From: Phyllobates terribilis
Taxonomy: Eukaryota
Assembly (NCBI RefSeq): GCF_046119375.1
Contig: NW_027362771.1
Coordinates: 82,026,001 to 82,090,000 of the forward strand
Direction of reading: 5' to 3'
DNA: 64,000 nt
Shown here piece after piece: positions 5,765 through 63,682 of this stretch; within the stretch, counting starts at the first letter, position 1, and every line of letters starts with the position of its first letter. The notes beneath the pieces were generated by a model. That model saw only the letters and a program-made list of their open reading frames with translations, had not been told where the DNA came from and did not search any database. Both the position numbers and the translations under genes were made by a program.

Positions 5765-7055
5765 TGTAGCGCCCCGTGGGTTCGGCCGCTACAGGGGTAT
5801 TGCACCTCTGCCAGAGGTGTGCTATTCCACTCCCAGGTAAGGATGGAGTATGAACCAGGGCTCAGTTAGCTGCATACAGCACACACACCCCATTTCCGAG
5901 GGACAGCTCAACGGTGCTCCCACTAGACAGAAGTGCAGGCACGACCGACTATGTCCCTGTCTGGAGTGGGGAGGGGGGGTGGAACACCCAGTGCTGTAGG
6001 GGCAGATAGGGGTTGGTTCCTGAGCGTAGGAAGGAGCCCATTGGTTGCTGGTCACCTGGGCTCATGGTCAGAGGGAGGTATAAAAGGGGGGCACCATCTT
6101 AGCTCTGGGAGAAGAAGAGAGGAAAAGGGTCTGTCCAGAGAGGAGAGGACAGGGAGTAGAGGCTCTGTAGGAGCTCTACTCCAGGAGGGCCTAGTGAGAG
6201 GCCGAGGAGGAGGTGAAGGGGAGCTGTGGTGTCACCTCAGCTCAGCTCCACGAGAAGGGAGGAGAAGAAGGAACAGGAAAGAAGAAGGAGAGACAGAGAA
6301 ACAGAAGGGCTCAGGAACAAGAAGGAAGAAGGGACCCTAAGAACCCACGAGAATACAGGGTGAAGGGTCAGGCAGATTAAAGGTGCTGGATCCCAAGTTG
6401 GTGGAGGAGAAACTACCCTCAGCCAAAGACCGGACGTCGTGACCATTTATTGGTGCGACACCTCATCAAACCTGCTAGGAAGGCACCATATAGGACAGCG
6501 GAGGACGGGGCCCACGTTTAACCGCACGAGTCCGCGGCAGCTGGACAAAAGTGGGTCACTGGTGAGGCAGGCCAGAGAAAGGATTGAAGGGGGTCCTGAG
6601 CCATACTCTTGAGCTGCCTGGGAGTTGACCGAGCCCCTCACCTGGTGGACGCAGCACTGCTCGGGCGGTCATTCCCTGCAGAAGTGACTTGGATATTAAC
6701 CGTGAGTAAAGACCCTGGACTGCAGTACGTTGCCTGTGTGCTTTTTCGCTCCTCCGGCACTACCGGTACTGGGACTCTCACCACCATCACTCCCACCATC
6801 CACTACACTGCCCTGGCGCCGCACTCTTCCCGTGGGGAGTCACACCATCCCAACTGCATACATCATCGGCCTCAGCGGTCTGCCCTGCAGCGGCGGTTCC
6901 TAATAACCGCAATCCACGGGTGGCGTAGTCGGACCTTATCTAAAAGACTGCCACTGGTCTGACCACCCTGAGCCACGGGACCGGGTCGCCACTATTACCC
7001 CCATCGTCTCCCTATTGCCCGGTTCCGAGTGCCCCACGGCCCAGGGGGCGAGTCA
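5765..7055 (+). mobile_element. Solo LTR (1291 bp), same family as the LTRs of the CSD element
   Basis: TGTAGCGCCCC...GGGGGCGAGTCA; 4-bp TSD TAAG; TATA (GGTATAAAAG, ~6078) and AGTAAA (~6705); homologous to 7821-9097 and 27790-29062. Confidence 0.92.
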
Positions 7056-7289
7056 TAAGTATAGCAAAGAAAAATCTGAAACTATTCATTGACAGCTTAA
7101 GAAGAGATCTATGATAATGTAAAATTTTTCATTAACTGTGACTTTACAGTCTCAGATTTTTTCTTTCCTATGCATTAATGAAATGCGATGTTTAAATTTG
7201 GGGACATATAGTTATAAAAATATAAGTATAGGTCTACTGCATCTGACCATTGTAGAATGAATCTGCAAAGTGGTAGCTCTGAATAACCT

Positions 7290-7820
7290 GTCATGTATGA
7301 CATATGATGTCTGTATATACAGTATAGGATATATGTCATATTATCCTGTATATGCACCTGATGTCTGTGCACATAGTATACCGTATACAGGATAATATAT
7401 GACTAGAATAAGATAAAGTGTGAGACACACATCAGACATTACACCAGCTGCATATTATCCTGTATATAACATCTGATGTCAGTGTATATAGGATATATGT
7501 CAGTATATATTATAGTATGACTGCACACATCAGATATTACACCAATCACATATTATCCTGTATATTAGGTCAGATGTTTGTACACATCCAGTACACAGGA
7601 TCACTGGTGGACACAGACAAAAGAGGGTCCCTGTTCAGGAGCAGTATATTGGTCTTTTACAGTCCAGTAGCTCATCATAATGCATAATTCTGCATTTTTG
7701 AGGTGGAAATGGGCCTCCTTGCCTCTTGGGCCCCTGTGCGACTGCACAGGTTGCACCAATGATATGTCCGCCCCAGCACAGGATAATATGTGACTGCTAT
7801 ATGATACACATTGATACAGA
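7290..7820. repeat. AT-rich degenerate tandem repeat (ACATCAGATG / TATTATCCTGTATA motifs); resumes at 9573-9714 and 10752-10900
   Basis: Recurring motifs interrupted by two LTR insertions. Confidence 0.55.
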
Positions 7821-9568
7821 TGTAGCGCCCCGAGGGTTCGGTCGCTACAGAGGTATTGCACCTCAACCAGAGGTGTGATATCCCACTCCCGGGTAAGGAT
7901 GGTGTGTGGACCAGGACTCAGTTAGCTGCATGCATCACACACACCCCATTTCCAGGGGACAGCTCAACGGTGCTCCCATTAGTACAGTAATGCAGGCACG
8001 ACAGATCATGTCCCTGGCTGGAGGGGGGAGGACAACCCAGTGATGTAGGAGCAGGAGGGGACGGTTTCTGGGCATAGGTAGGAGCCCATTGGTTGCAAGT
8101 CACCTGGGCTCATACACAGAGAGGGAGGTATAAGAGGTGGGCACCATCTTAGAACAGAGAGGAGAGAGAGTTCAGTCATGCAGAGAAGAAGTGCAGTCTG
8201 TGAGGAGAGGCTCTGCAGGAGCTCTGCTCCAGGGCCAGGCCTAGAGTAGAGGCCGGGGCCCGAGAGAAGAGAGGAGAACAGAAAGGAAAGAAAGAAGGAA
8301 CAGAACACCAAGAGAGGCCCAGAGACATGAAGGCAGAAGGAACCCTAAGGACCCAGGAGATTACGGGTGACGGGTTGGTAGAACAGGGTACCGGATCCCA
8401 AGTTGGTGGAGGTGACTAATCATTAACCAAGAACCGGTGGTCGAGATCATTTACTGGTGCGACCCCTCACTACACCTACTAGGAAGGCACACCACATAGG
8501 GTCAGGGAAGTGGACACCCAGTCCTCCCAGGAGAAGACCCGAGGCAGCTGGACAGAAGTAGTGTCACTGGTGGATCACGGCTGACGAAAGGAGAGAAGGG
8601 AGTCTTGTGCCACACTCCGGAATTGCCTGGGGGTTGATCGAGCCCCCTGCCTGGTGGACGCAGCACGGCTCAGGCGGTCCTACCTGTGCACAAGTGACCT
8701 GGATGTGAACTGTGAGTAAAGAACCTGAACTGCAACACCTTGTCTCTGTGCTTCCTCACCGTGTACAGCACTACTAGTACTGGGACGCCCCGCACCACAA
8801 CCACCATCATCGTTCTACACTGCCCTGAGGCTATACTCCTCCCGTGGGGAGTTGTACTACACTCTGCTGCACCCACAACACCAGCCTCAGCGGTCTGCCC
8901 TGCAGCGGCGCTTCATCCTGACCGCAATCCACGGGTGGCGTAGTCGGACATTTAATCATAAAAAACACATAAATAGACTGCCACTGGTTTGACCACCCTG
9001 AGCCACGGGACCGGGTCGCCGCCACGGTGACTACAACCCTCAGCATCCACAAAAAGGCCCGGCTCCGGGCTCCCCACGCAGCCCAGGGGGCGCGTCAACT
9101 TTGGCGTAGTCGGCAGGATTGTGACCAACCCGCCACAAACGGGTATTGCGTGCCTGAAAAAGACTGTACACTTACTTGAAAAAGAGGTTTCCCGCCATCA
9201 GGAGCCGTTTCCCGCCATCTTCAGTCGTTTCCCGCCATCTTCAGCCGTTTTCCCGCCATCGGACGCCATCTTCGGGACGCCGCGCGGGAAGAAGAGGGGC
9301 GTGGATGTAAAAAACGCGCAAAGTTCGAAGCCCCGCCTCATGCGCTGACGCCGCACAAGGTCCTGGAAGGAGCCCAGCGAGCGCTGACGTCAGTAGCGCG
9401 CGACGCCAGGTCCTCAACGCAGACCATCGTCAGCGGAGCCGCGGCCTACAGAAGACGATCGTCGGAAGGTAGGCCACGGTTAACCAGGATCGCCACGGTG
9501 ACTACAAACCCCAGCATCCCACAAAAGGCCCGGTTCCGGGTTCCCCACGTGGCCCAGGGGGCGCGTCA
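7821..9568 (+). mobile_element. Deleted LTR retroelement: full 5' LTR (7821-9097), PBS, leader, and only the last ~78 bp of the 3' LTR (9491-9568)
   Basis: TGTAGCG start; GGGGGCGCGTCA ends at 9097 and 9568; 4-bp TSD CAGA on both sides; PBS at 9102-9120. Confidence 0.9.
9102..9120 (+). promoter_or_regulatory. Primer-binding site, tRNA-Ser
   Basis: TGGCGTAGTCGGCAGGATT, 4 nt after the LTR end; complementary to the vertebrate tRNA-Ser 3' end ...AATCCTGCCGACTACGCCA (recalled, not searched). Confidence 0.88.
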
Positions 9569-9718: not shown

Positions 9719-10747
9719 TGTGTCACCCAGGGGGAATATAGGGGACTCGGTACCCGGTCCTTTTACCTTGTTTAGGAGATCACGGCAGTCGGCTCCCGGG
9801 CCCGTACTCTGGGTCTCTCTTTAAAAAGGGGTTTTAGTGTACAGTTTGTCTCGTGACGCCACCTGTGGTTTCCGGTAATGGTTACCGGCGCTGCTGCAGA
9901 CCTCCGGGGAGTGATGGGATGGCAGCTGGGATGTTTCTGCTCCCCACAGGTGGAGCGGGCCCCCGGGGCAGTGTAGGTGCAGATGGTGGTGATGCTGGGG
10001 CTTGTGGTGCAGGAGAGATGGCGCAGCAGGAGTAACTGACAGAGACAGGGGATTCACTTCAGTACCTTTACTGGTGCGGATGTCAGGTACGGTCCAGGGT
10101 ACTCGGTAGGAAGGGTGTACTTCAGGACTTCTCCCCAGTGAGCGGGTATAAGGCCTCCTGGTCCATGTCTCCCTCTCTCTAAGCTCCTGGCCAGCCTGCA
10201 ACTGGGCCTAGCTTCTGTGTCGTGCTGTTCCTTCACCTGTCGCTTGGTAGTAGGACTTTTTTCTGGCAACCACTATCCCTGGACGCCGGGGCCTTCATGG
10301 TTCCTAGTCCTGTTAAGGGTTTAGCTTCAGGTCGACCAGGGACTTGTAGTCCTCCTGGTATGCCGGTGATCCCTACTGGGTATAAAGGACCCTGTAGGCG
10401 CGGACCCGGTGTCCAGTTCGTGTCTTGGGGTGAGCCTATGATGCTTCTCTGCCCCCTCAACTCCTCTCTCCTCTCCTCTTTGCCTCCGGCCACACTCGGG
10501 GCCCTCAAAACAGAAGCAGCAGACGTGCTGCATCTTCACTGCTCTCAGTGGCAGCACACTCGCTCTCAGACTGAGACTGAACTGCCTGGCTCCACCCTCC
10601 ATATATATATATATCCCTAACGGGCTCCCTCTGGTGGTATGAGGTGGAAGGGTGGAGGTGTTTGTTTGTAACGAGGGCCTCTTGTGGAGAAGTCCATCCA
10701 TGCACCCTTTTGGGTCCTGTGGTACCTGTGAACAGCAGGGTGCCACA
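9719..10747 (-). mobile_element. Solo LTR of a second family (1029 bp)
   Basis: TGTGTCACCC...GGGTGCCACA inverted termini; 4-bp TSD GTAT; (TA)n TATA region ~10602-10615 and AGTAAA ~10067-10072 on the minus strand. Confidence 0.88.
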
Positions 10748-27789: not shown

Positions 27790-29062
27790 TGACGCGCCCC
27801 TGGGCCTGCTGTGTCGCGCGGCATCGCGCGCACGGGGGCTTACCCGGTGCCGGATCAGATGGGGGTAGTAGTCTTGTGGCGGTGACCCGGTCCGTGCCTA
27901 GGGAGTCAAACTGAGCGGCAGTATTTAGCAGTAGATGTTAGAATGTTCGACTACGCCACCCGTGGATTGCGGTCACGGGACCGCCGCTGCACGGCAGTCC
28001 GCCGAGGCCGGTGTTGTTTGTGCAGCTGAGAATGAGATGACTCCCCACGGGAGGAGTATGGCCTCAGGGCAGATCTGTTAGAGATGATGATGGGAGTGAT
28101 GGTGCGGGTGTCCCAGTGCTGAGGGTGCAGGTGTGACGGCAGGAACACAGAGGCGGGAAGTGCAGTTTCAAAAGCTTTACTCACAGTTCTTTATCAGATC
28201 CTTGTGCACAGTAGGACCACCCGAGCCGTGCTGCGTCCACCAGGTCAGGGACTCGGCCAACTCCCAGGCGATTCCAGAGCGTGGTCCAGAGCTCCCCTCT
28301 CTTCCTTCCTACTGGCCGTCCTCACCAGGGACCCACCTATGTCCGGCTTCCTCGGGCCTTATGGGGCAAAACCTCTCTCCGGCTTTCCTGACCCTATGTG
28401 GCGTGCCTTCCTGGTGGATGTGGCGAGGGGTCGTGCCAAAGCTTGACCACGACCTCCGGTTCCTGGCTAAGGATGATTGACCTCCACCAGTTTGGGATCC
28501 GGTACCCTTCTCTGCCAACCCTTCACCCGTTTTAGTTCACTCGTGGGATCTCAGGGTTCCTTCTGCTTGCGTCTCTGGGCCTTTCCTTGTGTTCCTCTTC
28601 TTCCTTCCCTCTCTATGCTTCAGGCCTGGCTCTGGAGCTGGGCCCAGACGGAGCCACAGCTCCCCCTCAGCCCTCTCTGGCTGAGCTCCTTTCTCCACTC
28701 CTCCAGGCTGAACAGACCCTGTCTAAAGATGGTGCCCACCTTATATACTCCCTCTGACACCCGAGCCCAGGTGACTAGCACCCAATGGGCTCCTACCTAT
28801 GCCCAGAGTCCCTCCCCTATCTGCTCCTATACTACTGGGATGTTCCTCCCCCCCCCCCACTCCAGCCAGGGACAGACGCTGTCGTACCTGCACATCTATC
28901 TGGTGGGAGTACCGTTGTTCTGTCCCCCGGAAATGGGGTGAGTGTAGTGTATGCAGCTATCTGAGCTCTGTCCCACACTCCATCCTTACCCGGGAGTGGA
29001 ATACCACACCTCTGGTTTGAGGTGCAATACTCCTGTAGCAGCCGAGTCCTCGGGGTGCTACA
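27790..29062 (-). repeat. 3' LTR (1273 bp)
   Basis: Direct repeat of 31385-32660; preceded on the minus strand by the PPT. Confidence 0.95.
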
Positions 29063-43800: not shown

Positions 43801-45726
43801 AAAAATTATTTCATGAATTTCATGAAATAATTAAAAAAAAAAATATGTGGGGCTTCGCCCTATTTTTGTGTCCAGCCAGGTACATCTAGGCAGCTGGGGG
43901 CTGGAATCCGCAGCGCAGGGAGGCCCAAGCTTTCTGCCCCCCACCCGCTGCAAATTGCAGTCCGCAGCCACCCCAGAAAATGGCAAGTTCATAGAAGCGC
44001 CATCTTCTGGTGCTGTACCCAGCTCATCCAGGGCCCTGGTGCGGTGGCTCACTGGGTAATAAAGGGGTTAGGGCCAGCTTGGCATCATCAGCTGGCCCTA
44101 AGCCCGAAATTCATGGGGTCACGCCAATATTAGACATGACCGCCATGAATTTCTAGTAAAGTATTTAAAAAAATCACAACACCCAGAATAAAGTCCTTTA
44201 ATTGAAATAAACACACATTGTTTTTAATGTTCTAAATTAAACCATACTTACTACCATCACGCCCATTCCAGCTGAAGCCAATGTCTTCTGCAATAAAAGT
44301 AAAATAATAAAGCAACCTCATCCTTACCTTTCCATGGTTCCCACGATTGCTTCAGCTCTGCTACATTGACATGACAGGCTGGACCGCAGCAGAACGCTGC
44401 CATCCAGCTTGCCATGCCGCACACGCTGTCAGTGACGTGCATGAGGTGAGCCGAGTTCATTGGACATGACCTCGGCTCATCTTTATGCCGTCACAGCGAG
44501 ACACTGAGGAGCGCAAGCATGCCTACGCTTCTCAGTGTGTGCGGCATGGCAAGCTGGATGGCAGCGTTCTGTTGCGATCCTGCCTGTCATATCAATGTAG
44601 CAGAGCTGAAGCTGTCGTGGGAACCATGGAAAGGTAAGGATGATGTTGCTTTATTATTTTACTTTTATTGCAGAAGACATTGGCTTCAGCTGGAATGGCC
44701 GTGATGGTAAGTATGGTTTAATTTAGAACATTAAAAAATTGTGTGTTTATTTCAATTAAAGGACTTTATTCTGGGTGTTTGTGTTTTTTTTTTTAACTTT
44801 GACTATGGGGTTAGTAATGGGGGTGTCTTATAGACGCTTCTCCATTACTAACCTGAGCTTGATGTCAGCTGGCATTATAAGCTGACATCAACCCCAGCCC
44901 TATTACCCCACTGCCACCGCTACAGGGCAGTGGGAAGAGCAAGGCTAAGTGCCAAAATTGGCGCATCCTATGGATGCGCCATTTCTGGGGCGGCTGACGG
45001 CTGGTGTTTCTAGCCTGGGAGGGGGCCAATATTCATGGCACCCTTCCTGGGCTATTAATATCAGCCCCCAGCTGTCTGCCTAGCCTTTGCTAGCTATTAA
45101 AATAGGGGGGACCCCACGTCATTTTTTGGGGGGGTCCCCCATTTTAATAGCTAGTAAAGGCTAGGTATTCAGCTGGGGGCTGATATTAGTAACCTGGGAA
45201 GCTCCGTGGGTATTACCCCCTTCCCAGGCTTCAAACATCTGCCCCAGCTGTCTGCTTAGCCTCCTCTAGAGACTAAAATTACGGGGAACCCCACGCCAAT
45301 TTTTTTTTAATAAATCCTTTATTTTAACACTAAATGACAAGTACAGTAATCAACACTATCACTGTACTTATTATATATGTGACCGACATGTTTCTATCTA
45401 TCTAATCTATGTGTGATGCTCTATTCTTTCTATACTAAATTGTCGGGTACCGCTGCTGAATTGCTGGCCGGCTTTTTTAAAGAGACGGTGCATGAAAACA
45501 CTATTATTTTTTTTAATAAATCCTTTAACACTAAATGACAAGTACAGTAAGCTGAGCTCTGCCATCCAGCTTGTCATCCTTCAGAGACACTGCAGAGCGC
45601 AGGCATTATGGGAACTTCCGATTCCGGTATTCGATATTCTAAAAGTATCGGAACTCAGTATCGGAACTCCGATACCGCGAATATCGGTCGATACCCGATA
45701 TTTCAGTATCGGAATGCTCAACACTA
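40843..45726. mobile_element. Non-autonomous hAT element (4884 bp) carrying a giant palindrome
   Basis: TIRs TAGTGTTGAGC / GCTCAACACTA; perfect 8-bp TSD CTCATAAG; clustered CCGATAC subterminal motifs. Confidence 0.95.
41179..45552. repeat. 4.4-kb imperfect palindrome centred at 43435/43436
   Basis: Axis CCACGTGG flanked by TTTAGGGACTGCATCTTTATTAACCCC / GGGGTTAATAAAGATGTAGTCCCTAAA; arms of about 2257 and 2117 bp match out to GCTTACTGTAC / GTACAGTAAGC. Confidence 0.93.
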
Positions 45727-46073
45727 CTCATAAGTAAACATATCTGCAAACTTTTTCTGAAGACAACCAGTTACAAGAAAAAAAGGCTAGTTAAAGGGAT
45801 TGGATATTTTTTGTTTCTTTTAACAAGTGTGTTGGGGACTTAATCTTGTTACACTTACTAATACATAAGTATGATTGGTTCTGCACTGTTTGTGCAGCTT
45901 TCATCACAGACTGCTTTGCACTCCTCAAAATGGCAGTTGATGGAGGTGCATGTGACTAGACCTATCAATTAGCCTCTAGTGATGGGCAAGCACTAAAATG
46001 CTGGGGTGCTCGATGGTCTGGTCGAGCAAATTGGAATACTCGGGTGCTCGACCCGAGCAACGAGCCCAATGTA

Positions 46074-47702
46074 CAGTACAGACCAAAAGTTTGGACATCC
46101 TTCTCATTTAAAGATTTTTCTGTATTTTCATGACTATGAAAAGTGTACATTCACACTGAAGGCATCAAAACTATGAATTAACACATGTGGAATTATATAC
46201 TTAACAAGAAAGTGTGAAACAACTGAAAATATGTTTTATATGCTAGGTTCTTCAAAGTAGCCACCTTTTGCTTTGATGACTGCTTTGCACACTCTTGGCA
46301 TTCTCTTGATGAGCTTCAAGAGGTAGTCACCGGAAATGGTCTTCCAACAATCTTCAAGGAGTTCCCAGAGATGTTTAACACTTGTTGGCCCTTTTGCCTT
46401 CACTCTGCGGTCAAGCTCACCCCAAACCATCTCGATTGGGATCAGGTCTGGTGACTGTGGAGGCCAGGTCATCTTGCGTAGCACCCCATCACTCTCCTGC
46501 TTGGTCAAATAGCCCTTACACAGCCTGGAGGTGTGTTTGAGGTCATTGTCCTGTTGAAAAATACATGATGGTCCAACTAAACGCAAACCGGATGGAATGG
46601 CACGCCGCTGCAAGATTCTGTGGTAGCCATACTGGTTCAGTATGCCTTCAATTTTGAATAAATCCCCAACAGTGTCATCAGCAAAGCACCCCCACACCAT
46701 CACATCTCCTCCTCCATGCTTCACGGTAAGAACCAGGCATGTAGAGTCCATCCGTTCACCTTTTCTGCATCGCACAAAGACACGGTGGTTGTAACCAAAG
46801 ATCTCAAATTTGGACTCATCAGACCAAAGCACAGATTTCCACTGGTCTAATGTCCATTCCTTGTGTTCTTTAGCCCAAACAAGTCTCTTCTGCTTGTTGC
46901 CTGTCCTTAGCAGTGGTTTCCTAGCAGCTATTTTACCATGAAGGCCTGCAGCACAAAGTCTCCTCTTAACAGTTGTTGTAGAGATGTGTCTGCTGCTTGA
47001 ACTCTGTGTGGCATTGACCTGGTCTCTAATCTGAGCTTCTGTTAACCTGCGATTTATGAGGCTGGTGACTCGGATAAACTTATCCTCAGAAGCAGAGGTG
47101 ACTCTTGGTCTTCCTTTCCTGGTGTGGTCCTCATGTGAGCCAGTTTCTTTGTAGCGCTTGATGGTTTTTGCAACTGCACTTGGGGACACTTTCAAAGTTT
47201 GCCCAATTTTTCGCACTGACTGACCTTCATTTCTTAAAGTAATGATGGCCACTCGTTTTTCTTTACTTAGTTGCTTTTTTCTTGCCATAATACAAATTCT
47301 AACAGTCTATTCAGTAGGATTATCAGCTGTGTATCCACCTGACTTCTGCACAACACAACTGATGGTCCCAACCCCATTTATAAGGCAAGAAATCCCACTT
47401 ATTAAACCTGACAGGGCACACCTGTGAAGTGAAAACCATTTCCGGTGACTACCTCTTGAAGCTCATCAAGAGAATGCCAAGAGTGTGCAAAGCAGTCATC
47501 AAAGCAAAAGGTGGCTACTTTGAAGAACCTAGAATATAAGACATATTTTCAGTAGTTTCACACTTTTTTGTTAAGTATATAATTCCACATGTGTTAATTC
47601 ATAGTTTTGATGCCTTCAGTGTGAATGTACAATTTTCATAGTCATGAAAATACAGAAAAATCTTTAAATGAGAAGGTGTGTCCAAACTTTTGGTCTGTAC
47701 TG
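46074..47702 (-). mobile_element. DD38E (Intruder-type) element, copy 2 (1629 bp), inserted in a hAT subterminal region
   Basis: TA TSD; the empty site CCCAATGTAAGTCTATGGG is seen in the paralog near 50240. Confidence 0.95.
46236..47288 (-). CDS. 350-aa DD38E transposase, uninterrupted ORF with intact D-D-E triad
   Basis: WSDESKF; QQDNDL...SPDLIPIEMVW with 38 residues between the second Asp and the Glu. Confidence 0.92.
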   Translation of the reverse strand: MARKKQLSKEKRVAIITLRNEGQSVRKIGQTLKVSPSAVAKTIKRYKETGSHEDHTRKGRPRVTSASEDKFIRVTSLINRRLTEAQIRDQVNATQSSSSRHISTTTVKRRLCAAGLHGKIAARKPLLRTGNKQKRLVWAKEHKEWTLDQWKSVLWSDESKFEIFGYNHRVFVRCRKGERMDSTCLVLTVKHGGGDVMVWGCFADDTVGDLFKIEGILNQYGYHRILQRRAIPSGLRLVGPSCIFQQDNDLKHTSRLCKGYLTKQESDGVLRKMTWPPQSPDLIPIEMVWGELDRRVKAKGPTSVKHLWELLEDCWKTISGDYLLKLIKRMPRVCKAVIKAKGGYFEEPSI

Positions 47703-49723
47703 TAAGTCTATGGGAAACTGGAGCATTTTTCAGGCGTCTCCCCCTGGCGGTCTGCAGAGGGCCTAAAAATTGCCCAAATCGATGGGAACAGTGCTCAAAT
47801 GACATGGGAATAGCATGGGGAAGACCCCTGGAAGCATTTCTGACTCAAAGATCACTGATGTCAACAACGTTGTTAGAGGTATTACGCCACTTTTACGGAC
47901 TCACAATAAAACATACAAAAAATAATCCAAAATGCATTTTCCTGGGAAATATGTTAAGGAACATCCTTTTCAGGGTAATGACTTGTATATAAGGCAAAAT
48001 AAATAACCAAAACCAAAATTACTCCTCCACACCTTGGGCTATGTTCACACGTAGCATTTTTGATGCGTTTTTGCACTTTTGCATTGCTTTCAACCAAGAC
48101 TAATGCATTCACTGGGAAATGTGATTTTAACATTTTACAACCTTATCTGGCCTTTTAGGCTCGTGGAGGCGGAAGCTTTTCACAACCTCAAGCCGGCGGC
48201 GGCCGGGTGTCCATACTCAGTCCCCAGCCGCTACTATTTGTCTCAGTGTCGTCTCCACCTTCCACAAGCACGGGTCCCACAACATTACCAGTGACCTCCC
48301 CAGTGAACTTACTGGGAAGGACCGCCTACCCACAAACACGTGGTCAAGTGAATGTGACCAGGGACTGTGCGGAGCCAGTCCACAGCTTTTTTTGCTGAGT
48401 TGTATTTCACCACAGCCATATTTTTGGACTTCGGAAGGAAATCATATCTACTTCAGCTGTCATTTCTCCTAGGAAATCCTCTAAAGCATCTTTCACTTGA
48501 AATGTGGCCTTTTAGGCTCATGGTGGCGGAAGCTTTTCACAACCTAATGCCGGTGGCGGCCGGGTGTCCATACTCGGTCTCCAGCCGCCACTATTTCTCC
48601 CGGTATCGTCTCCGCCTTCCACAAGCACGGGTCCCACAACATTACCCGTGCCCTCCCCAGTGCACTTACTGGGAAGGACCGCCTAATCACAAACACGTGG
48701 ACAGGTGAATGTGGCCATGGACGGTACAGAGCCAGTCCACAGCTTTTTTTGCTGACAGTTGTATTTCACCACAGCCATATTCTTTAGCTTTATGAAAGGA
48801 CTGGCATAGAGGGAAACCGTATCTTCTCTGCGTGTGATTTCTCCTAGGAAGTCCTCTAATGCAGCTTGTTGCAGAAGCAATGGCAGTCCATCCAACATAA
48901 GCTCGCACTTGTCGGTGTTGCTTCGACACACAAACCTCTTTATTTGCACCTTTAATTTCATGACTGCAGAGTTGGGCAATGGCCTGATCTGCAATGCGGT
49001 TTGAGAAATAACATGCATAAGCACGTCCAATCCACATTAAAAAAGCAGCCATAGAGTGTCCGGGAACCTTCCCACACACTTTTCTTAGCCAGGGCTTCTT
49101 TTCGGCTGGGCTGTACGGGCCCACCAGAGAACCAGAGACTCCTCTGGTGTGCCCTAGCTTCTCCTTCAGGATTGTTCATAGTGCCAAGGTGAGACCATGA
49201 TGATGATAGAGGCCACCATCTGCTTAGTTTTCCGTTACTTGGAATTCAAGCGCAAGTATGCAGCCAGCCACCCATCCACCCACAGGCCGCAATACTAAAC
49301 TGCCAGATTTCTGGGCAGCTGCTTGCACTTTAAATTTGGCCTTTTAGGCTCGTGGAGGTGGAAGCTTTTCACAACCTCATGTCGGCGGCAGCCGGGTGTC
49401 CATACTTTGTCCTCAGCCGCCACTATTTCCCCCGGTATCGCCTCGGCCTTCTACAAGCTCGGGTCCCTGAACATTACTGCTGGTACTTTTCTGTGGGAAT
49501 CTGCTTGCCTCCTACCAGCCTGGAATATTTCCAGTAAACTATGGTACGACGCAATGGTATTAGCACTGCCCCCAGTAGCAAAGCCATCCCCAATTTCCTT
49601 CTCAGGAATTTTATTTGGTAGACTGAGTGGCTGCCCAAATACATTAGTTTCTCACAAAGGAGCAGAAGATAGAGTGGCAGTAGGTTCAAGTTTCTCCAGC
49701 CTGTTAGATATTAGAGGGTGAAC

Positions 49724-49967
49724 GGCAGCACATTGGATCAGTGGTTAGCACTGAAGCCTTGCAGCCTATGGCTGCTTTTTTACTGAGGTGGAAACGCACA
49801 CAAAAACGGGGAGAACATACAAAATCATTGCAGATGTTGTCCTTGCTGGGATTTGAACCCAGGATCCCACCTGGGTTCAAATCCCAGCAAGGACAACATC
49901 TGCAACGATTTTCTATGTTCTCCCCGTGTTTGCGTGCGTTTCCACCTCAGTAAAAAAGCAGACATAG
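49724..49967 (+). mobile_element. tRNA-derived V-SINE-like fragment with a fold-back duplication
   Basis: Same head as 53281; 49766-49863 is the reverse complement of 49870-49967. Confidence 0.7.
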
Positions 49968-52900
49968 AGTGTCCGGGAACCTTCCCACACACTTTTCTTA
50001 GCCAGGACTGCTTCTTGGCAGGGTTGGACGGTCCCACCAGAGAATCCTCTGGTGTGCCCTGGCTTCTACATCAGAAGAGTTCATGATAGCGCTAACTTTG
50101 CAGTTGCTATGGGGCTCTTGAGCGGGGAAGAAAAGTGAGCCCTCAGAATTAGTGATGAGCGAGCACTAAAATGCTCGGGTACTCATTGCTCGGGTGGAGA
50201 AAATTGTAATACTCGGGTACTTGACCCGAGCAACGAGCCCAATGTAAGTCTATGGGAAACTCGAGCATTTTTCAGGCGACTCCCCCCGGCGGTCTGCAGA
50301 GGGCCTAAAAATTGCCCAAATCGATGGGAACAGTGCTCAAATGACATGGGAACAGCATGGGGAAGACCCCTGGAAGCATCTCTGACTCCCAGATCACTGC
50401 TGTCAGCAACGTGGTCAGAGTATTACGCCACTTTTATGGACTCACAATAAAACATACAAAAATGAAACCAAAATGGATTTTCCTGGGAAATATGTTAAGG
50501 AACATCCTTTCCAGGGTAATGACTTCTATATAAGGCAAAATAAATGACCAAAAACAAAACTACTCCTTCACAACTTGGGTTATTTTCACACGTAGCGTTT
50601 TTGATGCGTTTTTGCACTTTTGAATTGCTTTCAACCAAGACAAATGCATTCACCAGGAAATGTCATTTTAACATTTTACAACCTTATCTGGCCATGTGGT
50701 GTGTGGCAAATCATCAGACACATGCATACAGTGCTGAAAAGACATGGGAACAGCATGGGGAAGACCTCTGGAAGCATCTCTGACTCCCAGGTCACTGCCT
50801 AAAAGTGTGCCCATCATAAGTGATCCTTGGCGCATGCGAAGATGCCTCCCGCCATGCACCTGTCATTGCAGACTTGCAACAATCACCGTCCAAGTCCTTG
50901 TCCCACTGCAACGTTCAGTTGTCCCTACCCCGTTCCTTGGAATGCAAGCGCAAGTATGCCGGGAGCCACCCACCCCCCACAGGCTGCAATACTATACTGC
51001 CTAATTTTTGACAGCTGCTTGCACTTGAAATGTGGCCTTTTAGGCTCGTGGAGGCGGAAGCTTTTCACAACCTCATGCCGGCGGCGGCTGGGTGTCCATA
51101 CTCGGTCACCAGCCGCCACTATATTTCCAAGTATCGCCTCCACCTTCCACAAGCACGGGTCCCACAACATTACCCGTGCCCTCCCCAGTGCACTTACTGG
51201 GAAGGACCGCCTAACCACAAACACGTGGACAGGTGAATGTGGCCAGGGATGGTACGGAGCCCGTCCACAACTTTTTTTGCTAAGAGTTGTATTTAGCTCG
51301 GTGAAAGGACTGACATAGTGGGAAACTGTATGTACCTGCGTGTCATTTCTGCTAGGAAGTCCTGTAATTGAGCTTGTTGCAGAAGCAATGGCAGCCCATC
51401 CAACATCAGCTCGCCCTTGTCGGTGGAGCTTTGACACACACACATCTTTCTTTGCGCATTTAATTTCTTGAATACAGAGTTGGACAATGGCCTGATCTGT
51501 AATGCGTTTTGAGAAATAACATGCATAAGCATGGCCGATCCACATTAAAAAAGCAGCCATAGAGTGTCCGGGAACCTTCCCCCACACTTTTATTAGCCAG
51601 GGCTGCTTTTCGGCAGGGTTGGACCGGCCCACCAGAGAACCTGAGACTCCTCCGGCGGGCCCTAGCTTCTCCTTCAGAAGAGTTCATAGTGTTGAGGTGA
51701 GGCCATGATGATGATAGAGGCCACCATTTGCTTAGTTTTCAGTTACTTGGAATGCAAGTGCAAGTATGCAGCCAGCCACCCACCCACCCACAGGATGCAA
51801 CACTAAACTGCCAGATTTCTGGGCAGCTCTTGCACTTGAAATATGGCCTTTTAAGCTCGTGGAGGTGGAAGCTTTTCACAACCTCATGCCGGCGGCGGCC
51901 GGGTGTCCATACTCGGTCCCCAGCAGCCACTATATTTCCCGGTATCGCCTCCGCCTTCCACAAGCACGGGTCCCACACCATTACCTGTGCCCTCCCCAGT
52001 GCACTTACTGGGAAGGACCGCCTAACCACAAACACGTGGACATGTGAATGTGACCAGGAACGGTACAGAGCCAGTCCACAACTTTTTTTGCTAAGAGTTG
52101 TATTTAGCTCGGTGAAAGGACTGGCATAGAGGGAAACCGTATGTACCCTTGGTGTCATTTCTCCCAGGAAGTCCTCTAATGCAGCTTGTTGCAGAAGCAA
52201 TGGCAGCCCGTCCAACATCAACTCGCACTTGTCGGAGGTGCTTTGACACACACACACACATCTTTCTTTGCGCATTTAATTTCTTGAATAGAGAGTTGGA
52301 CAATGGCCTGATCTGTAATGCGGTTTAAGAAATAACATGCATAAGCATGGCCGATCCACATTAAAAAGCAGCCATAGAGTGTCCAGGAACCTTCCGCCAT
52401 ACTTTTCTTAGCCAGGGCTGCTTCTCGGCAGGGTTGAACGGGCCCACCAGAGAACCAGAGACTCCTCCGGTGGGCCCTGGCTTCTCCTTCAGGAGAGTTC
52501 ATAGTGCCAAGGTGAGGCCATGATGATGATAGAGGCAACCATCTGCTTAGTTTTATGTTACTTGGTATGCAAGTGCAAGTATGCAGCCAGACATCCCACC
52601 CACCCACAGGCCGCAACACTAAACTGCCAGCTTTATGGGCAGTTCTTTGCACTTGAAATATGGCCTTTTAAGCTCGTGGAGGCGGAAGCTTTTCACAACC
52701 TCATGCCGGCGGCAGCCGGGTGTCCATACTCGGTCCCCAGCAGTCACTATATTTCCCGGTATTGCCTCCGCCTTCCACAAGCACGGGTCCCACAACATTA
52801 CCTGTGCCCTCCCCAGTGCACTTACTGGGAAGGACCGCCTAACCACAAACACGTGGACATGTGAATGTGACCAGGAACGGTACGGAGCCAGTCCACAACT

Positions 52901-53280
52901 TTGTTTGCTAAGAATTGTATTTAGCTCGGTGAAAGGACTGGCATAGAGGGAAACCGTATGTACCCTTGGTGTCATTTCTCCCAGGAAGTCCTCTAAAGCT
53001 GCTTGCACTTGAAATGTGGCCTGAACATTACTGCTGGTACTTTTCTGTGGGAATTTGCTTGCATCCTACCAGCCGGGAATATTTCCAGCAAACTATGGTA
53101 CAACGCCATGGTATTAGCACTGTCCACAGTACCAGTAGCGAAGCCATTCCCAATTTCCTTCTCAGGAATTTTATTTGGTAGACTGACTGGCTGCCTAAAT
53201 ACATTTTCTCACAAAGGAGCTGAAGATAGAGTGGCAGTAGATGCAAGTTTCTCCAGCCTGTTAGATATTAGAGGGTGAAC

Positions 53281-53408
53281 GGCAGCACATTGGATCAGTG
53301 GTTAGCACTGAAGCCTTGCAGCGCTGGGATCCTGGGTTCAAATCCCAGCAAGGACAACATCTGCAAGGACTTTGTATGTACTCCCCGTGTTTGCGTGTGT
53401 TTCCTCAT
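53281..53408 (+). mobile_element. tRNA-derived SINE (V-SINE-like) 5' portion
   Basis: A-box-like TGGATCAGTGGTTAGC, B-box GGTTCAAATCC (53335-53345), V-domain-like TCCCCGTGTTTGCGTG. Confidence 0.72.
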
Positions 53409-54337
53409 CAGTAAAAAAGCAGCCATAGAGTGTCCGAGAACCTGCTTCTCGGCAGGGTTGGACAGTCCCACCAGAGAATCCTCTGTTGTGCCTTGGCTTC
53501 TACCTCAGGAGAGTTCATTATAGCGCTAACTTTGCTGCTGCTATGGGGCTCTTGAGCGGGTAAGAAAGGTTAGCCCTCAGAATCAAATCCTCTGGTGGGC
53601 ACAATGTTTTTCATTCTGAAACAGCTTCTCAGTGGGAGTTGTATTTCACCACAGCCATATTCTTTAGCTCGGTGAAAGGACTGGCATAGATGGAAACCGT
53701 ATCTACCCCAGCTGTCATTTCTCCGTCACCAGGTTCAGCAGTGAGAGCCACAGATCAGGCTGCTGTGTTTCAGCTTTCAACAACTCTGCTGCGCTGGGCG
53801 GTTTGTCAATTAAGCATTAAGCATGTTATCTTGAGCACAGCCTGTTGCCGCTTGGCCAAGGCAGTGCTGTCAGCTTGTGACTGATGTGGTCATTTCGGAG
53901 ATGGAGGAGGAGGTGCATGAGCTGAACAATGTGATTACATTGAGGTTAGATTGGTGACGCTGTGTTTTATACTAAAGAAAGATCCTATTGTTTTGTTTTT
54001 TTTACGTTCTTTTTAAGACAAATGCATTCACCGGGAAATGTCATTTTAACATTTTACAACCTTATCTGGCAATGTGGTGTGTTACACATAATCAGACACA
54101 TCCTTTTTATTTATGATGGAGGGACTCTGAATGTCATAAAGCCTATTTTTATAGGGACATCAGACGGCCCTTACTATTCTTAAAAGGCCAGCAGTCGGCC
54201 CTAGCTATTGTTAGAGAGCCATCAGCCGGCTATGCTTTGTTGTTCCCATTATTAACAAGTGGTCTCCTATACTGTTATTGCGTATCCAGTGACTGCAAGG
54301 GCTGCCAAAAATGTGGACGCAACCCAATAAGAAATTA

Positions 54338-55735
54338 AAGAATTTAAAGACACACAGAGTAGGGCCACAGTAACAAGGTACGACATGTTCCAATTAGAAA
54401 GGAGAGGGTCTGCTATACAGTTATAGGGTATGCAGTGAGTCCAACAGCTGACCAAATTTAGGAAAAACCCCACTAACAATTTAAAGACACATAGCGCAGG
54501 GCCACAGTAATGAGTACGATATGTTTCCATTAGAAAGGAGAGCGTCTGCTATACAGTTATACGGTATGCAGTGAGTCCAACGGCTGACCAAATTTAAGAA
54601 AAACCCCACTAAGAATTTAAAGACACATTGAGCAGGACCACTGTAAGAAATACAACATGCTCCCATTAGAAAGGAGAGAGTCTTCTATATAGTTATAGGG
54701 TATGCAGTGAGTCCAACAGCTGACCAAATTTTGGAAAAACCCCACTAAGAATTTAAAGACACAGAGCAGGGCCACAGTAACGAATACGACATGTTCCAAT
54801 TAGAAAGGAGAGGGTCTGCTATACAGTTATACGGTATGCAGTGAGTCCAACGGCTGACCAAATTTAGGAAAAACCCCACTAAGAATTTAAAGACACATAG
54901 AGCAGGGCCACTGTAACAAGTACGACATGTTTCCATTAGAAAGGAGAGGGTTTGCTATACAGTTATAGGGTATGCAGTTAGTCCAACGGCTGATCAAATT
55001 TAGGAAAAACCCCACTAAGAATTTAAAGACACATAGAGCAGGGACACAGTAATGAGTACGACATGTTCCCATTACAAAGGAGAGGGTTTGCTATACAGTT
55101 ATAGGGTATGCAGTTAGTCCAACGGCTGACCAAATTTAGGAAAAACCCCACTAAGAATTTAAAAACACATAGAGCAGGGCCACTGTAATGAGTACGACAT
55201 GTTTCCATTAGAAATGAGAGGGTCTGCTATACAGTTATAGGGTATGCAGTGAGTCCAACTGCTGACCAAATTTAGGAAAAACCCCACTAAGAATTTAAAG
55301 ACACATAGAGCAGGGCCACAGTAACGAGTATGACATGTTCTCATTAGAAAGGAGAGAGCTTGCTATATAGTTATAGTGTATGCAGTGAGTCTAACAGCTG
55401 ACCAAATTTAGGAAAAACCCCACTAAGAATTTAAAGACACCGAGCAGGGCCACAGTAACGAGTACGATATGTTCCCATGAGAAAGGAGAGAGTCTGCTAT
55501 ACATTTATAGGGTATGCAGTGAGTCCAATGGCTTACCAAATTTAGGAAAAACCCCACTAACAATTTAAAGACACATAGAGCAGGGCTACAGTAACGAGTA
55601 CGACATTTTCCCATTATAAAGAAGAGGGTCTGCTATACATTTATAGGGTATGCAGTGAGTCCAACGGATGACCAAATTTAAGAAAAACCCCACTAATAAT
55701 TTAAAGACACATAGAGCAGTGCCACAGTAACAACA
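54338..55735. repeat. 136-bp tandem repeat, about 10 copies
   Basis: AAATTTAGGAAAAACCCCACTAAGAATTTAAAGACAC recurs about every 136 bp; short ORFs in the track repeat with the same period. Confidence 0.93.
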
Positions 55736-56189
55736 AATTCCCAATAGAAAGGAAAGGGTCTCCAATAGTGTTGGCCAATGCAGTGAATGCAAGGGCTACC
55801 AAAAATTAGGAGGCACTTCAATGCCCCTTGGAAGAGAAGTACAATGCATCGTAAAAAAATGTTCCCATTAGAAAGGAGCGGGTCTCCTATACTTGTAATG
55901 CTCATGCACTAAGTGTATGGGCTGACAAACATTTACCCCTGGGGGGTATACACGAACATACTGTATAAAAAATTTTTTTTATGGTCATCATAAACACCCT
56001 TTAAAAAAATTATGTGGGTGTTGCATCACGGACCATGGTCACCTTAGTGATATGATGGTGGAGGATGAGGATGAGGAGAAAGAGGAGGACAAGAGCAAAT
56101 AGCCAATATCAGGAAGCATATACCCATGTGTGGGTGTGAAAAGGTGCATGGGAATGCACCTCCCAAAAAGACACTGGATTTGAGTTTAT

Positions 56190-57372: not shown

Positions 57373-57756
57373 GACACAGTCGCTCCGGATCAGACAGTGT
57401 AGGGACAGCGCTGCTGATTTAGGGAGAGATATATCTTGCAAAATAGTTAGTGTAGGGTCTGTAAAGGCTGCCAGATCAAACAAACAGTCCTTCTCAGGAC
57501 TAATATCCATCCCAGGTATATCAGGCAGGCAGGCAGGCAGGCTGTATAGGAGACGCAGTGGTTATACCAGCAAACGCTGCATTACAGTCCTGTGTGCTGC
57601 TCCTGTTGCTGAAATTGCTGGACTTAGCTCCAGGTCCCGGGGGCCAGGAAAAATCCTTTTTTTTTATCTAAATCCTCTTTTTTTTTTCCTCCTTCACAAT
57701 GTACAAATACCCATCTTATTAACCTTTTGGTGCCCCCCCCCCCCCCAAAAAAAAAG

Positions 57757-59165
57757 TGTGCCTCTGATTTTTCAGACACAAATATATCTGTTGAAAATAG
57801 TCTGGTGTAGGCCAGAGAAATAGAAGTGTGGTTTTGCAGTTCTATGGGCCATTTGTATCTAAAAAAACAGTTTGAGTGTGTCGCTCACTGTTCAGCCGCA
57901 AATATATATATATTTTAAAAAGCCTGGTATACACCAGTAAATTATTACTGTGGTTTTGATGTTCCACGGTAAAACATCTCTATTATCCTGTTTTTGGCAT
58001 TTTTTGCTGTATAAAAATAATAATAGTGTCTCCCTGATTTTTCAGACACAAATATATCTGTTGAAAATAGTCTGGTGTAGGCCAGAGAGACAGAAGTGTG
58101 CTTTTGCTGTTCCACGGTAAAAAATCTCTATTATCCTGCTTTTTGCATTTTTTGCTGTTAAAAAAAGAAATAGTGTCTCCCTGATTTTTCAGACACAAAT
58201 ATATCTGTTGAAAATAGTCTGGTGTAGGCCCGAGAAATACAAGTGTGGTTTTGCAGTTCCACGGTACAAACCTCTGTATTATCCACTTTTGGGCCATTTG
58301 TATCTAAAAAAACAGTTTGAGTGTGTCGCTCACTGTTCAGCCGCAAATATATATATATTTTAAAAAGCCTGGTATACACCAGTAAATTATTACTGTGGTT
58401 TTGATGTTCCACGGTAAAACATCTCTATTATCCTGTTTTTGGCATTTTTTGCTGTATAAAAATAATAATAGTGTCTCCCTGATTTTTCAGACACAAATAT
58501 ATCTGTTGAAAATAGTCTGGTGTAGGCCAGAGAGACAGAAGTGTGCTTTTGCTGTTCCACGGTAAAAAATCTCTATTATCCTGCTTTTTGCATTTTTTGC
58601 TGTAAAAAAAAAAAAAAAAATAGTGTCTCCCTGATTTTTCAGACACAAATATATCTGTTGAAAATAGTCTGGTGAAGGCCCGAGAAATACAAGTGTGGTT
58701 TTGCAGTTCCACGGTACAAACCTCTGTATTATCCACTTTTGGGCCATTTGTATCTAAAAAAAACAGTTTGAGTGTGTCGCTCACTGTTCAGCTGCAAATA
58801 TATATATATTTTAAAAAGCCTGGTATACACCAGTAAATTATAACTGTGGTTTTGCTGTTCCACGGTAAAAAATCTCTATTATTCAGGTTTTGGTAGTTTT
58901 TTCCGTAAAGAAAAACAGTAGTGTCTCCTGACTGTTGTGACACAAAAATATATCTGTTGAAAATAGTCTTGTGTAGGCCTGACATCCCAGTGTGGTTTCG
59001 CAGTTCCACGGGTCAAATCGCTGTACTATCCAGTTTTGGGCCTTTGGTATCTAAAAAAAAAGCAGTTTGAGTGTGTCACTCACTGTTCAGCCGCAAATAT
59101 CTCTATTTAAAAAAGTGTGGTATATCCCAGTAAACAATAACTGTGGTTTTCCTCTTCCACGGTTC
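57757..59165. repeat. Higher-order tandem repeat: 445-bp unit made of three ~148-bp related subunits
   Basis: Identical ORFs recur at a 445-bp offset (57983/58428); TTTTTCAGACACAAATATATCTGTTGAAAATAGTCTGG recurs within units. Confidence 0.88.
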
Positions 59166-59231
59166 TAATCTACTCTTTATTACCCTTTTTCCATTGATAG
59201 TGCAAGTGTAAGCTATTTTACTTCATTTACA

Positions 59232-62200: not shown

Positions 62201-62576
62201 TTTTCTGACACCCGCCCAGCTTACAGGCCCTGAGGCGCGGGGTACTCTCACAAGGAGTGGAAAGTTTCAAAAGATGGTGAGGGAGTACCTTGCCGATCGT
62301 ACCAGCGTCCTCCGTGATTCCTCTGTGCCTTTTAATTATTGGGTATCCAAGCTGGACACTTGGAATGAACTCGCTCTGTACGCCTTGGAGGTCCTGGCCT
62401 GCCCTGCCGCTAGCGTGTTATCGGAGCGTGTTTTTAGTGCCGCTGGGGGAATTATAACTGATAAGCGCACTCGCCTATCAACTGACAATGCTGACAAGCT
62501 GACCCTTATCAAAATGAACAAGGGCTGGATTGGGCCAGACTTCTCATCACCACCAAATGACAGCAGAGTAACATAA
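59232..62576 (+). pseudogene. hAT transposase (BED finger, DDE, dimerisation domain), 1114 codons with three in-frame stops
   Basis: VWNF..CSTC..RHMAAKH (BED), TTDTWT, VCDNG, CLAH, RWN, SVLSERVFS; four track ORFs share one frame, stops at 60549, 61023 and 62070. Confidence 0.95.
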
Positions 62577-62721
62577 AGTCAAATCCACTGTGTTATTTCG
62601 GGAGGTGTATTCACATGCACCGCTTCACACCCACACATGGGTATACGCTTCCTCGTTTCGGCTATTTAATCTTCTTCTCCTTATCCTCAACCTCCACCAC
62701 CACTATACCACCAGGGTGCCA

Positions 62722-63373
62722 GCATTGCAAGTTCCTCCGTCCTAATTTTTGGCAGCTTTTGCTGGGAAAGCATAAGCAAATACCATGGGACACCCACTCC
62801 CCAATAATGGGACTTATGTTTGTAATATGCTGTACTGCATGGCTCTTGTAAGGGGCATTGCAAGTTGCTCCGTCCTAATTTTTGGCAACTTTTGCTGGGA
62901 AAGCATAAGCAAATACTATGGGAGACCCACTCCCCAATAATGGGACTTATGTTTGGAATATGCTGTACTGCATGGCTCTTGTAAGGGGCATTGCAAGTTG
63001 CTCCGTCCTAATTTTTGGCAGCTTTTGCTGGGAAAGCATAAGCAAATACTATGGGAGACCCACTCCCCAATAATGGAACTTATGTTTGGAATATGCTGTA
63101 CTGCATGGCTCTTGTAAGGGGCATTGCAAGTTGCTCCGTCCTAATTTTTGGCAGCTTTTGCTGGGAAAGCATAAGCAAATACTATGGGAGACGCACTCCC
63201 CAATAATGGGACTTATGTTTGTAATATGCTGTACTGCATGGCTCTTGTAAGGGGCATTGCAAGTTGCTCCGTCCTAATTTTTGGCAGCTTTTGCTTGCAA
63301 GGCATAAGCAAATACTATGGGACACCCACTCCCCAATAATGGGACTTATGTTTGTAATATGCTGTACTGCATG
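62722..63373. repeat. 133-bp tandem repeat, about 4.9 copies
   Basis: GCATTGCAAGTT at 62722, 62855, 62988, 63121, 63254. Confidence 0.95.
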
Positions 63374-63682
63374 TGACGCGCCCCCTGGGCCGTGTGTACA
63401 CGTGTGTGGGATACCCGGTGCCGGGTCTCTGGGGTCTGTAGTCTCCGTGGCGGTGACCCGGTCCCGTGGCTCAGGCTGGTCAAACCAGTGGCAATCTTTC
63501 TTAGGTTTTGAGGTTAATTGTCCGACTGCGCCACCCGTGGATTGCGGTCAGGGAGTACCACCGCTGCGAGGCAGACCGCTGAGGCTGGTGTTGTGTGCGC
63601 AGCATAAAATGGGATAACTCCCCTCGGGAGGAGTATAGCCTCAGGGCAGTGAGTGTGGATGATGGGGGTGATGGTGCACGAG
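63374..63682 (-). mobile_element. 3' end (U5) of an LTR of the CSD-element family, interrupted by a hAT insertion
   Basis: TGACGCGCCCCCTGGG start, GCGCCACCCGTGGATTGCGGTC; expected TSD CATG. Confidence 0.88.

Follow-up and report, generated by a model that had tools for sequence, protein, structure and literature searches.

Primer choice, opening and holding by retroelement templates are known mainly from human immunodeficiency virus (HIV), avian sarcoma-leukosis virus (ASLV), Ty1, Ty3 and gypsy, and the extra template–primer pairings proposed for them are disputed. In the cited portions of this literature, Drosophila gypsy has two 11-nt sites for tRNA-Lys2, of which the 5' primer-binding site (PBS) alone primes (PMC1635307), the Ty1 leader has a pseudoknot near the PBS that is needed for reverse transcription (PMC3681743), and HIV-1, in its primer activation signal (PAS) or A-rich loop, and ASLV, in U5, make additional leader–tRNA pairings with the T arm or the anticodon loop, primer switching requiring changes outside the PBS (PMC3185550, PMC13191261). 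Here we describe a 64,000-nt stretch (the window) of the 10.6-Gb genome of Phyllobates terribilis (contig NW_027362771.1, positions 82,026,001–82,090,000), in which two families of Ty3/gypsy retrotransposons with long terminal repeats (LTRs), primed by tRNA-Ser, carry, within U5, a second match to the 3' end of the primer (site P), a match to its 5' end (site A) and a predicted pseudoknot that abuts P. This U5 module is a real, strongly conserved cis-acting RNA module and a form of extended primer–template interaction, the mechanism of which we infer. A conserved, tRNA-specific function of site P is strongly supported.

The first-pass annotation of the window had assigned the U5 motifs to tRNA-Ser isoacceptors, and the host genome carries matching genes for tRNA-Ser(CGA) (L078), tRNA-Ser(TGA) (L155) and tRNA-Ser(AGA) (L193), which served as references; the AGA and TGA acceptor stems are identical. 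In family 1 the PBS is complementary over 18 nt to the AGA/TGA 3' end and in family 2 to the CGA 3' end, the AGA-type and CGA-type PBSs being identical at 12 of 18 bases. The family 2 PBS proved to be related to the motif in its own U5, beginning TGGC(G/T)TCACGAACAG in the two 5' LTRs (L004, L030) among 30 family 2 loci.

Site P co-varies with the true PBS, a relation that the first-pass annotation had proposed to test. Whole-genome counts with exact patterns, the CCACnGG context and a spacing of 148–178 nt gave 13,885 copies with an AGA-type P and an AGA-type PBS and 3,758 with a CGA-type P and a CGA-type PBS, versus four discordant copies (one AGA-type P with a CGA-type PBS, three the other way round); controls with reversed patterns gave 0 matches. 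Two of the four discordant copies are chimeras joined at GGCGTCAC microhomology, and no discordant family has been amplified. The 17,647 pattern copies are 21% of the 82,224 Ser-type PBS matches in the genome, a share kept low because exact patterns skip mutated copies and the CAACGGG context. In an unbiased sample, the first 30 PBS matches on contig C1 picked regardless of P, a cognate P with at most one mismatch was present at 144–178 nt in 28 loci; of the other two, the first carries three mismatches in the corresponding position, and in the second this region has been replaced.

The motif is also conserved far above the flanking linker. Pairwise identity among the 26 AGA-type copies of the PBS-picked sample is 0.94 at P bases 1–11 and 0.91 at the preceding 7 bases, versus 0.45 at bases 12–18 and 0.38 in the linker, and the drop after base 11 indicates that P ends at the acceptor stem. 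Its 11–14 nt correspond to the CCA, the discriminator and the acceptor strand, CGA types often reaching 13–14 nt, and agreement with the tRNA at positions 15–16 is 0–10% over 118 junctions. The family 2 P has an A at the position of a U in the tRNA 3' strand and of a G in the 5' strand, so P is a copy of the PBS rather than of the tRNA 5' end. A tree of Gag requires two changes of tRNA type, forced by its starred branches (38 of 91 junctions; the others lack the 150-residue Gag segment), and a tree of 47 upstream LTR stretches also gives two, a single AGA-type origin being not rejected (p-AU, approximately unbiased test, 0.096). There was at least one independent primer switch, and probably there were two.

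Several PBSs extend past 18 nt into additional tRNA-Ser sequence, which identifies tRNA-Ser as the physical primer. Such extensions reach 15–35 nt beyond the 18 nt in L075, L079, L082, L083 and L084 (the search pattern selected copies of this kind), and in L079 and L084 the LTR end recurs in inverted form behind the extended PBS, as though plus-strand synthesis had run through the primer and then folded back. In the chimeras L090 and L091, GGCGTCAC microhomology links a Ser(CGA) PBS to an LTR end and PBS that come from a Ser(AGA) family. Three family 2 loci (L030, L133, L147) have the LTR end up to 11 nt ahead of the PBS, and their pyrimidine spacer is predicted to pair with an upstream purine run, so that the hairpin would reach as far as the PBS. 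Scanning the CCACnGG context for families with a third tRNA type gave one match, with a listed motif that differs from the AGA type by a single base; a GCT-type PBS had no search of its own. Ser(GCT) genes are present in the host. A tRNA-Ser 5' pattern has 667 matches in the genome, and the first 100 listed include one CGA-type acceptor, 36 of the AGA/TGA type and 63 of the GCT type, these last in a ~1.3-kb tandem array on C9.

A segment ~88–98 nt upstream (Q) is the predicted partner of the 7 nt that precede P; the match is perfect over all 7 bp in 96 of 118 junctions and comes in three compensated versions: CCACGGG/CCCGTGG (45), CCACAGG/CCTGTGG (34) and CAACGGG/CCCGTTG (17). The CCAC context proposed by the first-pass annotation is therefore not invariant, CAACGGG being common as well. 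Five helices were drawn by eye on an alignment of 41 representatives and compared with 500 shuffles and with slid controls. In this prediction 98.0% of 1,139 cells are paired and 14 of 28 pairs are changed on both sides, with 0 of 500 shuffles as high and slid helices paired at 36–58%; by the tool's own warning, relatedness and a structure drawn from the same sequences inflate the covariation test. Q is placed in the 8-nt loop of a 5-bp hairpin, leaving one free base, and two further helices cross this pseudoknotted fold. The first loop is a single variable nucleotide (T in 19, A in 13 and G in 9 of the 41), and the 7-bp second stem is 99.3% paired with two compensated pairs. A hairpin loop that pairs with a downstream strand across a short first loop is the geometry of an H-type pseudoknot, and the predicted core has the loop:downstream pairing, the short first loop and the compensatory changes.

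The Q helix ends at the base immediately ahead of P. A continuation of this helix over P is 70% paired without any compensatory change, and a local anti-P hairpin, picked out by eye in one lineage, is not general (3 of 76 and 0 of 42 below z −2). Among the Q-helix extension and the anti-P hairpins examined, no compensated RNA partner was found for the invariant TGGC of P. Rfam has no relevant family matching the module.

Site A lies ~60–90 nt upstream of the PBS, is complementary to tRNA nt 1 to ~11 and switches with the PBS. A regular-expression anchor for it missed 35 of 118 junctions and was dropped, so the analysis was based on alignment, with 37 subfamily representatives (20 AGA, 17 CGA) hand-chosen from clusters and later loci, in which duplexes of the U5 loop with nt 1–20 of the cognate tRNA were ranked by energy with shuffled loops as a control. 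The best duplex starts at nt 1 in 36 of the 37; the cognate tRNA beats the other tRNA-Ser in 32 of 37 and Ser(GCT) in 34 of 37. CGA-type sites resemble GCCAC(C/T)GTGAC (10–11 bp), one AGA lineage has an unbroken 12-bp match with G-U variants, and the large AGA lineage has the site in two blocks separated by a 0–5 nt bulge. Opposite tRNA nt 7–10, Ser(CGA) elements have C (16/17), A or G (16/17), C or T (17/17) and C (16/17), bases that match the tRNA but, in this register, neither P nor the PBS. An extension of site A into a predicted 9–10 bp match with the D arm (tRNA nt 11–20) occurs in L083, L166 and L169, with a G-U variant in the last.

Single-sequence folds mostly put A in the apical loop of a long hairpin that runs from ~110 nt upstream to the LTR end; those of the entire U5 are inconsistent among the folds listed. 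The alignment fold recovers the inner helix of this downstream hairpin. Its outer helix has 6–7 of 7 positions paired in 113 of 114 anchored junctions (four were unanchored; the partner is the best match), and family 2 has the swapped version CCCTGGG/CCCAGGG. P, A and the PBS amount to a natural swap experiment, with three sites switching with the tRNA over tens of thousands of copies beside a strongly compensated predicted pseudoknot.

In the window, the elements and their parts are as follows.

5765–7055, plus strand: family 1 solo LTR, TG...CA, with the 4-bp target duplication TAAG
6829–6920, plus strand: predicted pseudoknot helix partners in this LTR, Q (6829–6835) pairing with the context (6914–6920)
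6921–6932, plus strand: site P, complement of the 3'-terminal 12 nt of tRNA-Ser(AGA/TGA)
6988–6998, plus strand: site A, complement of tRNA-Ser(AGA/TGA) nt 1–11, two positions imperfect
7821–9568, plus strand: family 1 element with an internal deletion, made of a 5' LTR (7821–9097), PBS, short leader and the final ~80 nt of the 3' LTR; target duplication CAGA
8825–8935, plus strand: predicted five-helix pseudoknotted domain, with Ha 8825–8831/8884–8890, Hb 8835–8839/8848–8852, Q 8841–8847 with the context 8929–8935, Hc 8866–8869/8903–8906 and hairpin H0 8908–8925
8936–8947, plus strand: site P, 12 nt, starting at the first base past the Q:context helix
8990–9097, plus strand: predicted long U5 hairpin, base at the LTR end, site A in the apical loop
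9021–9034, plus strand: site A, complement of tRNA nt 1–6 and 7–11 with a 3-nt bulge
9102–9119, plus strand: true 18-nt PBS for tRNA-Ser(AGA/TGA)
9719–10747, minus strand: family 2 solo LTR, target duplication GTAT
9851–9861, minus strand: family 2 site P, complement of the 3'-terminal 11 nt of tRNA-Ser(CGA); its context 9862–9868 pairs with Q 9944–9950
9779–9788, minus strand: family 2 site A, complement of the tRNA-Ser(CGA) 5' end
27790–32660, minus strand: family 1 element with two LTRs 99% identical (27790–29062, 31385–32660), a ~2.3-kb internal region and a purine tract before the 3' LTR; target duplication TTGT on the plus strand
27948–27958, minus strand: site P in the 3' LTR of this element (A 27868–27880, Q 28045–28051)
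31543–31553, minus strand: site P in its 5' LTR, with one G-to-A change at a CpG (A 31463–31475, Q 31640–31646)
31362–31379, minus strand: true PBS of this element
63374–63677, minus strand: 3' fragment of a family 1 LTR (P 63523–63533 with one mismatch, A 63438–63451)

The four insertions at 5765–7055, 7821–9568, 9719–10747 and 27790–32660 have TG...CA ends and 4-bp target duplications, the PBS starts 4–11 nt past the LTR, and the purine tract lies at ~29063–29071 ahead of the 3' LTR. All six U5 motifs were found where the first-pass annotation had placed them: TGGCGTAGTCG(G) at 6921 and 8936 on the plus strand and at 27958 on the minus strand, copies with one mismatch at 31553 and 63533 (minus) and TGGCGTCACGA at 9861 (minus). 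Their starts are 135, 162, 169, 169 and 160 nt from the LTR 3' end in family 1 (6921, 8936, 27958, 31553 and 63533) and 143 nt in family 2 (9861). A motif search in the window alone is weak (11 matches at two mismatches versus 3.55 expected), and the case therefore rests on the genome-wide counts. Site A at 9021–9034 fits both tRNAs: a near-CGA-type site lengthened by three bases yields the AGA-type core, with a 3-nt bulge left over; this bulge is possibly the scar of a primer switch. Elsewhere in the window, self-comparison revealed nested inverted-repeat elements and several tandem arrays (35300–47704, 41052–45552, 48145–53724, 54241–55935, 57747–59185 and 62722–63373).

Rearranged copies show that the two sites are occasionally mistaken for each other. 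A full PBS directly after CCACnGG occurs in 3 copies genome-wide versus 17,643 normal ones. L086 and L087 are deletions from P to the PBS, and their 3' LTRs were not found within 10 kb. In L085/L158, P is replaced in register by the full 18-nt PBS in the 5' LTR alone, the 3' LTR being full length with a normal P. In L082 (1230–1560), behind the LTR end and 18-nt PBS the sequence jumps back to the first bases downstream of P and runs on into a second U5 end and PBS, the duplicated stretch being delimited by P and the PBS. In these counts, which do not include duplications of the L082 kind, confusion of the two sites is rare, not routine. A functional alternative PBS was rejected on these three copies in the CCACnGG context, none of which has a demonstrated short 3' LTR, and an alternative LTR end at the CA before P is rare at most in a search that did not cover truncated solo LTRs.

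The explanation that we favor, by a modest balance of probability, is that the two strands of the primer tRNA's acceptor stem would be taken up by P and A before the tRNA passes on to the longer PBS. The CCA end of tRNA-Ser would pair with the free UGGC of P; the acceptor stem would be opened, its 3' strand going onto P and its 5' strand onto A; with a helix right against its 3' end, the tRNA would be hard to extend at P; and the 3' end would finally move to the 18-nt PBS, predicted to be ~8 kcal/mol more stable, while A retains the 5' strand. Rough energies (kcal/mol, AGA/CGA type) from 36 representatives, with L088 omitted as discordant, are −4/−6 for P, −6/−8 for A, −13/−15 for P+A, −14/−16 for the PBS and −21/−24 for PBS+A, which makes the path from P+A to PBS+A downhill and leaves P or A alone weak. 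The proposed handover would account for the shorter length of P relative to the PBS, and for the failure of any discordant family to spread even though the two PBS types share two thirds of their bases. The module is kept in elements of 3–3.7 kb without a match to reverse transcriptase (RT), which fits a cis-acting replication signal.

Several observations weigh against this explanation. Copy counts are not independent events, the trees require just two tRNA-type changes, and they group the tRNA types differently, likely because of recombination. Only 19 of the 37 U5 loops reach z < −2 versus shuffled loops. Site A is imperfect in the largest lineage (0–5 nt bulge or mismatch), at tRNA nt 4 there is an A-C mismatch in one CGA clade, and the subfamily of the window pairs slightly better with the non-cognate tRNA over nt 1–20 (−21.7 versus −19.8). 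The downstream hairpin is energetically weak, with a median z of −0.85 and 2 of 37 below −2. Pseudoknot and loop geometry, tRNA modifications and chaperones do not enter into the energies, and the tRNA at P is only presumed to be the later primer.

A more specific version, which we regard as tentative and rather unlikely, is a riboswitch-like device in which the pseudoknot would stack on the CCA end at P, accept uncharged tRNA only, exchange the strands onto P and A, block extension and hand the tRNA over to the PBS. If true, it would be an RNA-encoded primer loader doing part of the job of the retroviral nucleocapsid and of a synthetase. The ~300-nt module, with two natural versions and two host tRNAs, provides reciprocal in vitro controls.

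The alternative that survives best, although we consider it unlikely, involves two tRNAs: one, the primer, would occupy the PBS, its freed 5' strand taken up by A, and another would remain at P against the predicted pseudoknot, aiding packaging or dimer formation or restraining reverse transcription. PBS+A is indeed the most stable predicted state and leaves P free to take a tRNA at −4 to −6 kcal/mol, and tRNA-bridged dimers have been proposed for Ty3 in the cited portions of two reports (PMC5371799, PMC11381356). However, pairing of this strength, with a match that stops at the acceptor stem (hardly any agreement at positions 15–16), suits a transient site rather than a lasting one.

An intramolecular switch, in which A pairs with P or the PBS to keep the latter open or masked and the tRNA binds the PBS only, appears decidedly doubtful. 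P bases 5–10 and the core of A are complementary and co-vary, and isolated P:A and PBS:A duplexes reach −8 to −11 kcal/mol, but in register they form ~6 bp at most. Moreover, the conserved 5' half of A fits tRNA nt 7–11 (in one subfamily also the D arm) and not P or the PBS, and the invariant TGGC of P would be left without a compensated RNA partner.

It is very unlikely that the module is a neutral relic, whether of an old duplication of LTR end and PBS or of antisense tRNA from read-through, kept matched by occasional tRNA-templated conversion. The distance from the start of P to the end of A (81–107 nt, median 92) is close to the 85 nt of the tRNA, primer read-through is seen in real copies, L082 is a fresh duplication of LTR end and PBS, and in a single LTR of L085 P has been turned into an 18-nt PBS. 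Yet the sequence between P and A does not resemble antisense tRNA (0 of 37 above z 2), although both ends are preserved, and conversion is far too rare and would yield 18-nt instead of 11–14-nt matches. With a span so close to a tRNA length, the module may still owe its origin to primer read-through, although its middle retains no trace of such a copy.

The first-pass annotation had read the motif as a conserved function such as alternative priming or strand transfer; the conserved, tRNA-specific function stands on the co-variation with the PBS and the conservation, whereas priming or transfer at P amounts to a rare error, and a routine site of this kind is highly improbable. A CA does stand 4–5 nt ahead of P, as at the true LTR end, and L082, L085, L086 and L087 record occasional confusion during copying. 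Against this are the mere three genome-wide copies with a full PBS at P (DNA products that do not integrate would escape notice), the full-length 3' LTR of L085 and the Q helix, which accounts for the upstream bases. The further suggestions of the first-pass annotation, primer binding by solo-LTR transcripts and a docking site for tRNA fragments or PBS-binding repressors, hardly deserve credence, also when P is taken as a repressor site at the DNA level or as a 3' tRNA-fragment target or decoy that would serve solo LTRs, for although such factors would follow the PBS type and P is in every LTR copy, they leave the co-varying site A and the compensated RNA helices of the pseudoknot unexplained, P lacks most of PBS positions 11–17, which would face the seed of an 18-nt 3' tRNA fragment, and a second repressor site brings the element no evident benefit.

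Both families are Ty3/gypsy LTR retrotransposons. The description of their LTRs as unrelated in the first-pass annotation was wrong, given Pol segments that are 65–79% identical and a common U5 architecture alignable throughout. The pol order is protease, RT, RNase H and integrase (Pfam on open reading frames of L061 for family 2 and L072 for family 1), the protease match being weak (E 1.5e-4, below the cut-off); the closest named Pol homologues are frog proteins, and named homologues come from toad, frog and fish. The Gmr1 clade, defined in the cited part of PMC3601003 by an integrase upstream of RT, was rejected on this order. Gag matches the PNMA family PF14893 weakly, with 27.6 bits in L072 (cut-off 25) and 22.9 bits in L061. 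By this weak match the elements may be related to those of the Gypsy12_DR group, the source of mammalian PNMA genes (PMC3789554); in the available text of that source on those elements the word 'tRNA' is absent. The clade concerned has at least 82,000 PBS-bearing insertions in the genome and a Gag weakly resembling the source of mammalian PNMA genes. On C2 at 874–877 Mb, ten family 2 LTR ends (L009–L011, L018–L024) with an identical flank and a ~300–380 kb spacing represent a large tandem segmental duplication. Contigs of sequencing runs labelled organisms A–D cover the module, with depth, which is not copy number, highest or near-highest at 8930–8944 among the listed rows; no RNA run was listed as holding it. 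A search of IMG/VR for the module gave 0 matches, and two metagenome matches are due to chance, lying in unrelated coding DNA.

No description of a PBS copy in U5 combined with a site for the tRNA 5' strand and a pseudoknot adjoining the copy was found in the literature, most subscription journals, Repbase reports and supplements being outside the scope of this search. In feline immunodeficiency virus, a U5 loop pairs with the 5' end of the tRNA, a case that the search did not recover. In the T-box antiterminator, a UGGN word pairs with the NCCA end of a tRNA beside a stackable helix; a sensor of this type tells uncharged from charged tRNA by a helix set against the CCA end. The UGGC of P beside its abutting predicted helix would be consistent with this geometry; in contrast to a T-box, P would pair over 11–14 nt and open the acceptor stem, and the module has no specifier loop and no T-box match in Rfam.

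Gypsy belongs to the same Ty3/gypsy group as the present families and also has an additional 11-nt site for the tRNA that primes it, but according to the cited part of the report that site lies near the genome's 3' end and binds the anticodon and T stems (PMC1635307), whereas here P is a U5 site that would take the CCA end for which the PBS is also complementary, and A would pair with the 5' end of the tRNA. The bipartite PBS of Ty3 and the extended PBS of Ty1 likewise use several template segments besides the 3'-end site; in the cited portions, these bind the T and D arms and complement a short PBS of 8–10 nt (PMC5371799, PMC11381356). In the present elements an 18-nt PBS is complete, and of the additional sites P repeats it and A would take up the 5' acceptor strand. 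A bipartite PBS of the Ty3/gypsy type was rejected on the shared 3' end bound by P and the PBS and on the U5 position of P and A, the 3' untranslated region not having been searched for further sites. The predicted pseudoknot resembles that of Ty1, compared by description and Rfam only, in lying in the leader near the PBS, and differs in abutting a tRNA 3'-end site, which the cited part of PMC3681743 does not describe. A PAS-type signal with T-arm pairing does not fit, P ending at base 11–14 and A pairing from tRNA nt 1. In the same sources on HIV-1 and ASLV, the extra sites avoid the acceptor strands, which P and A are predicted to bind here, and the need of those viruses for changes outside the PBS parallels the co-switching of P, A and the PBS in these elements.

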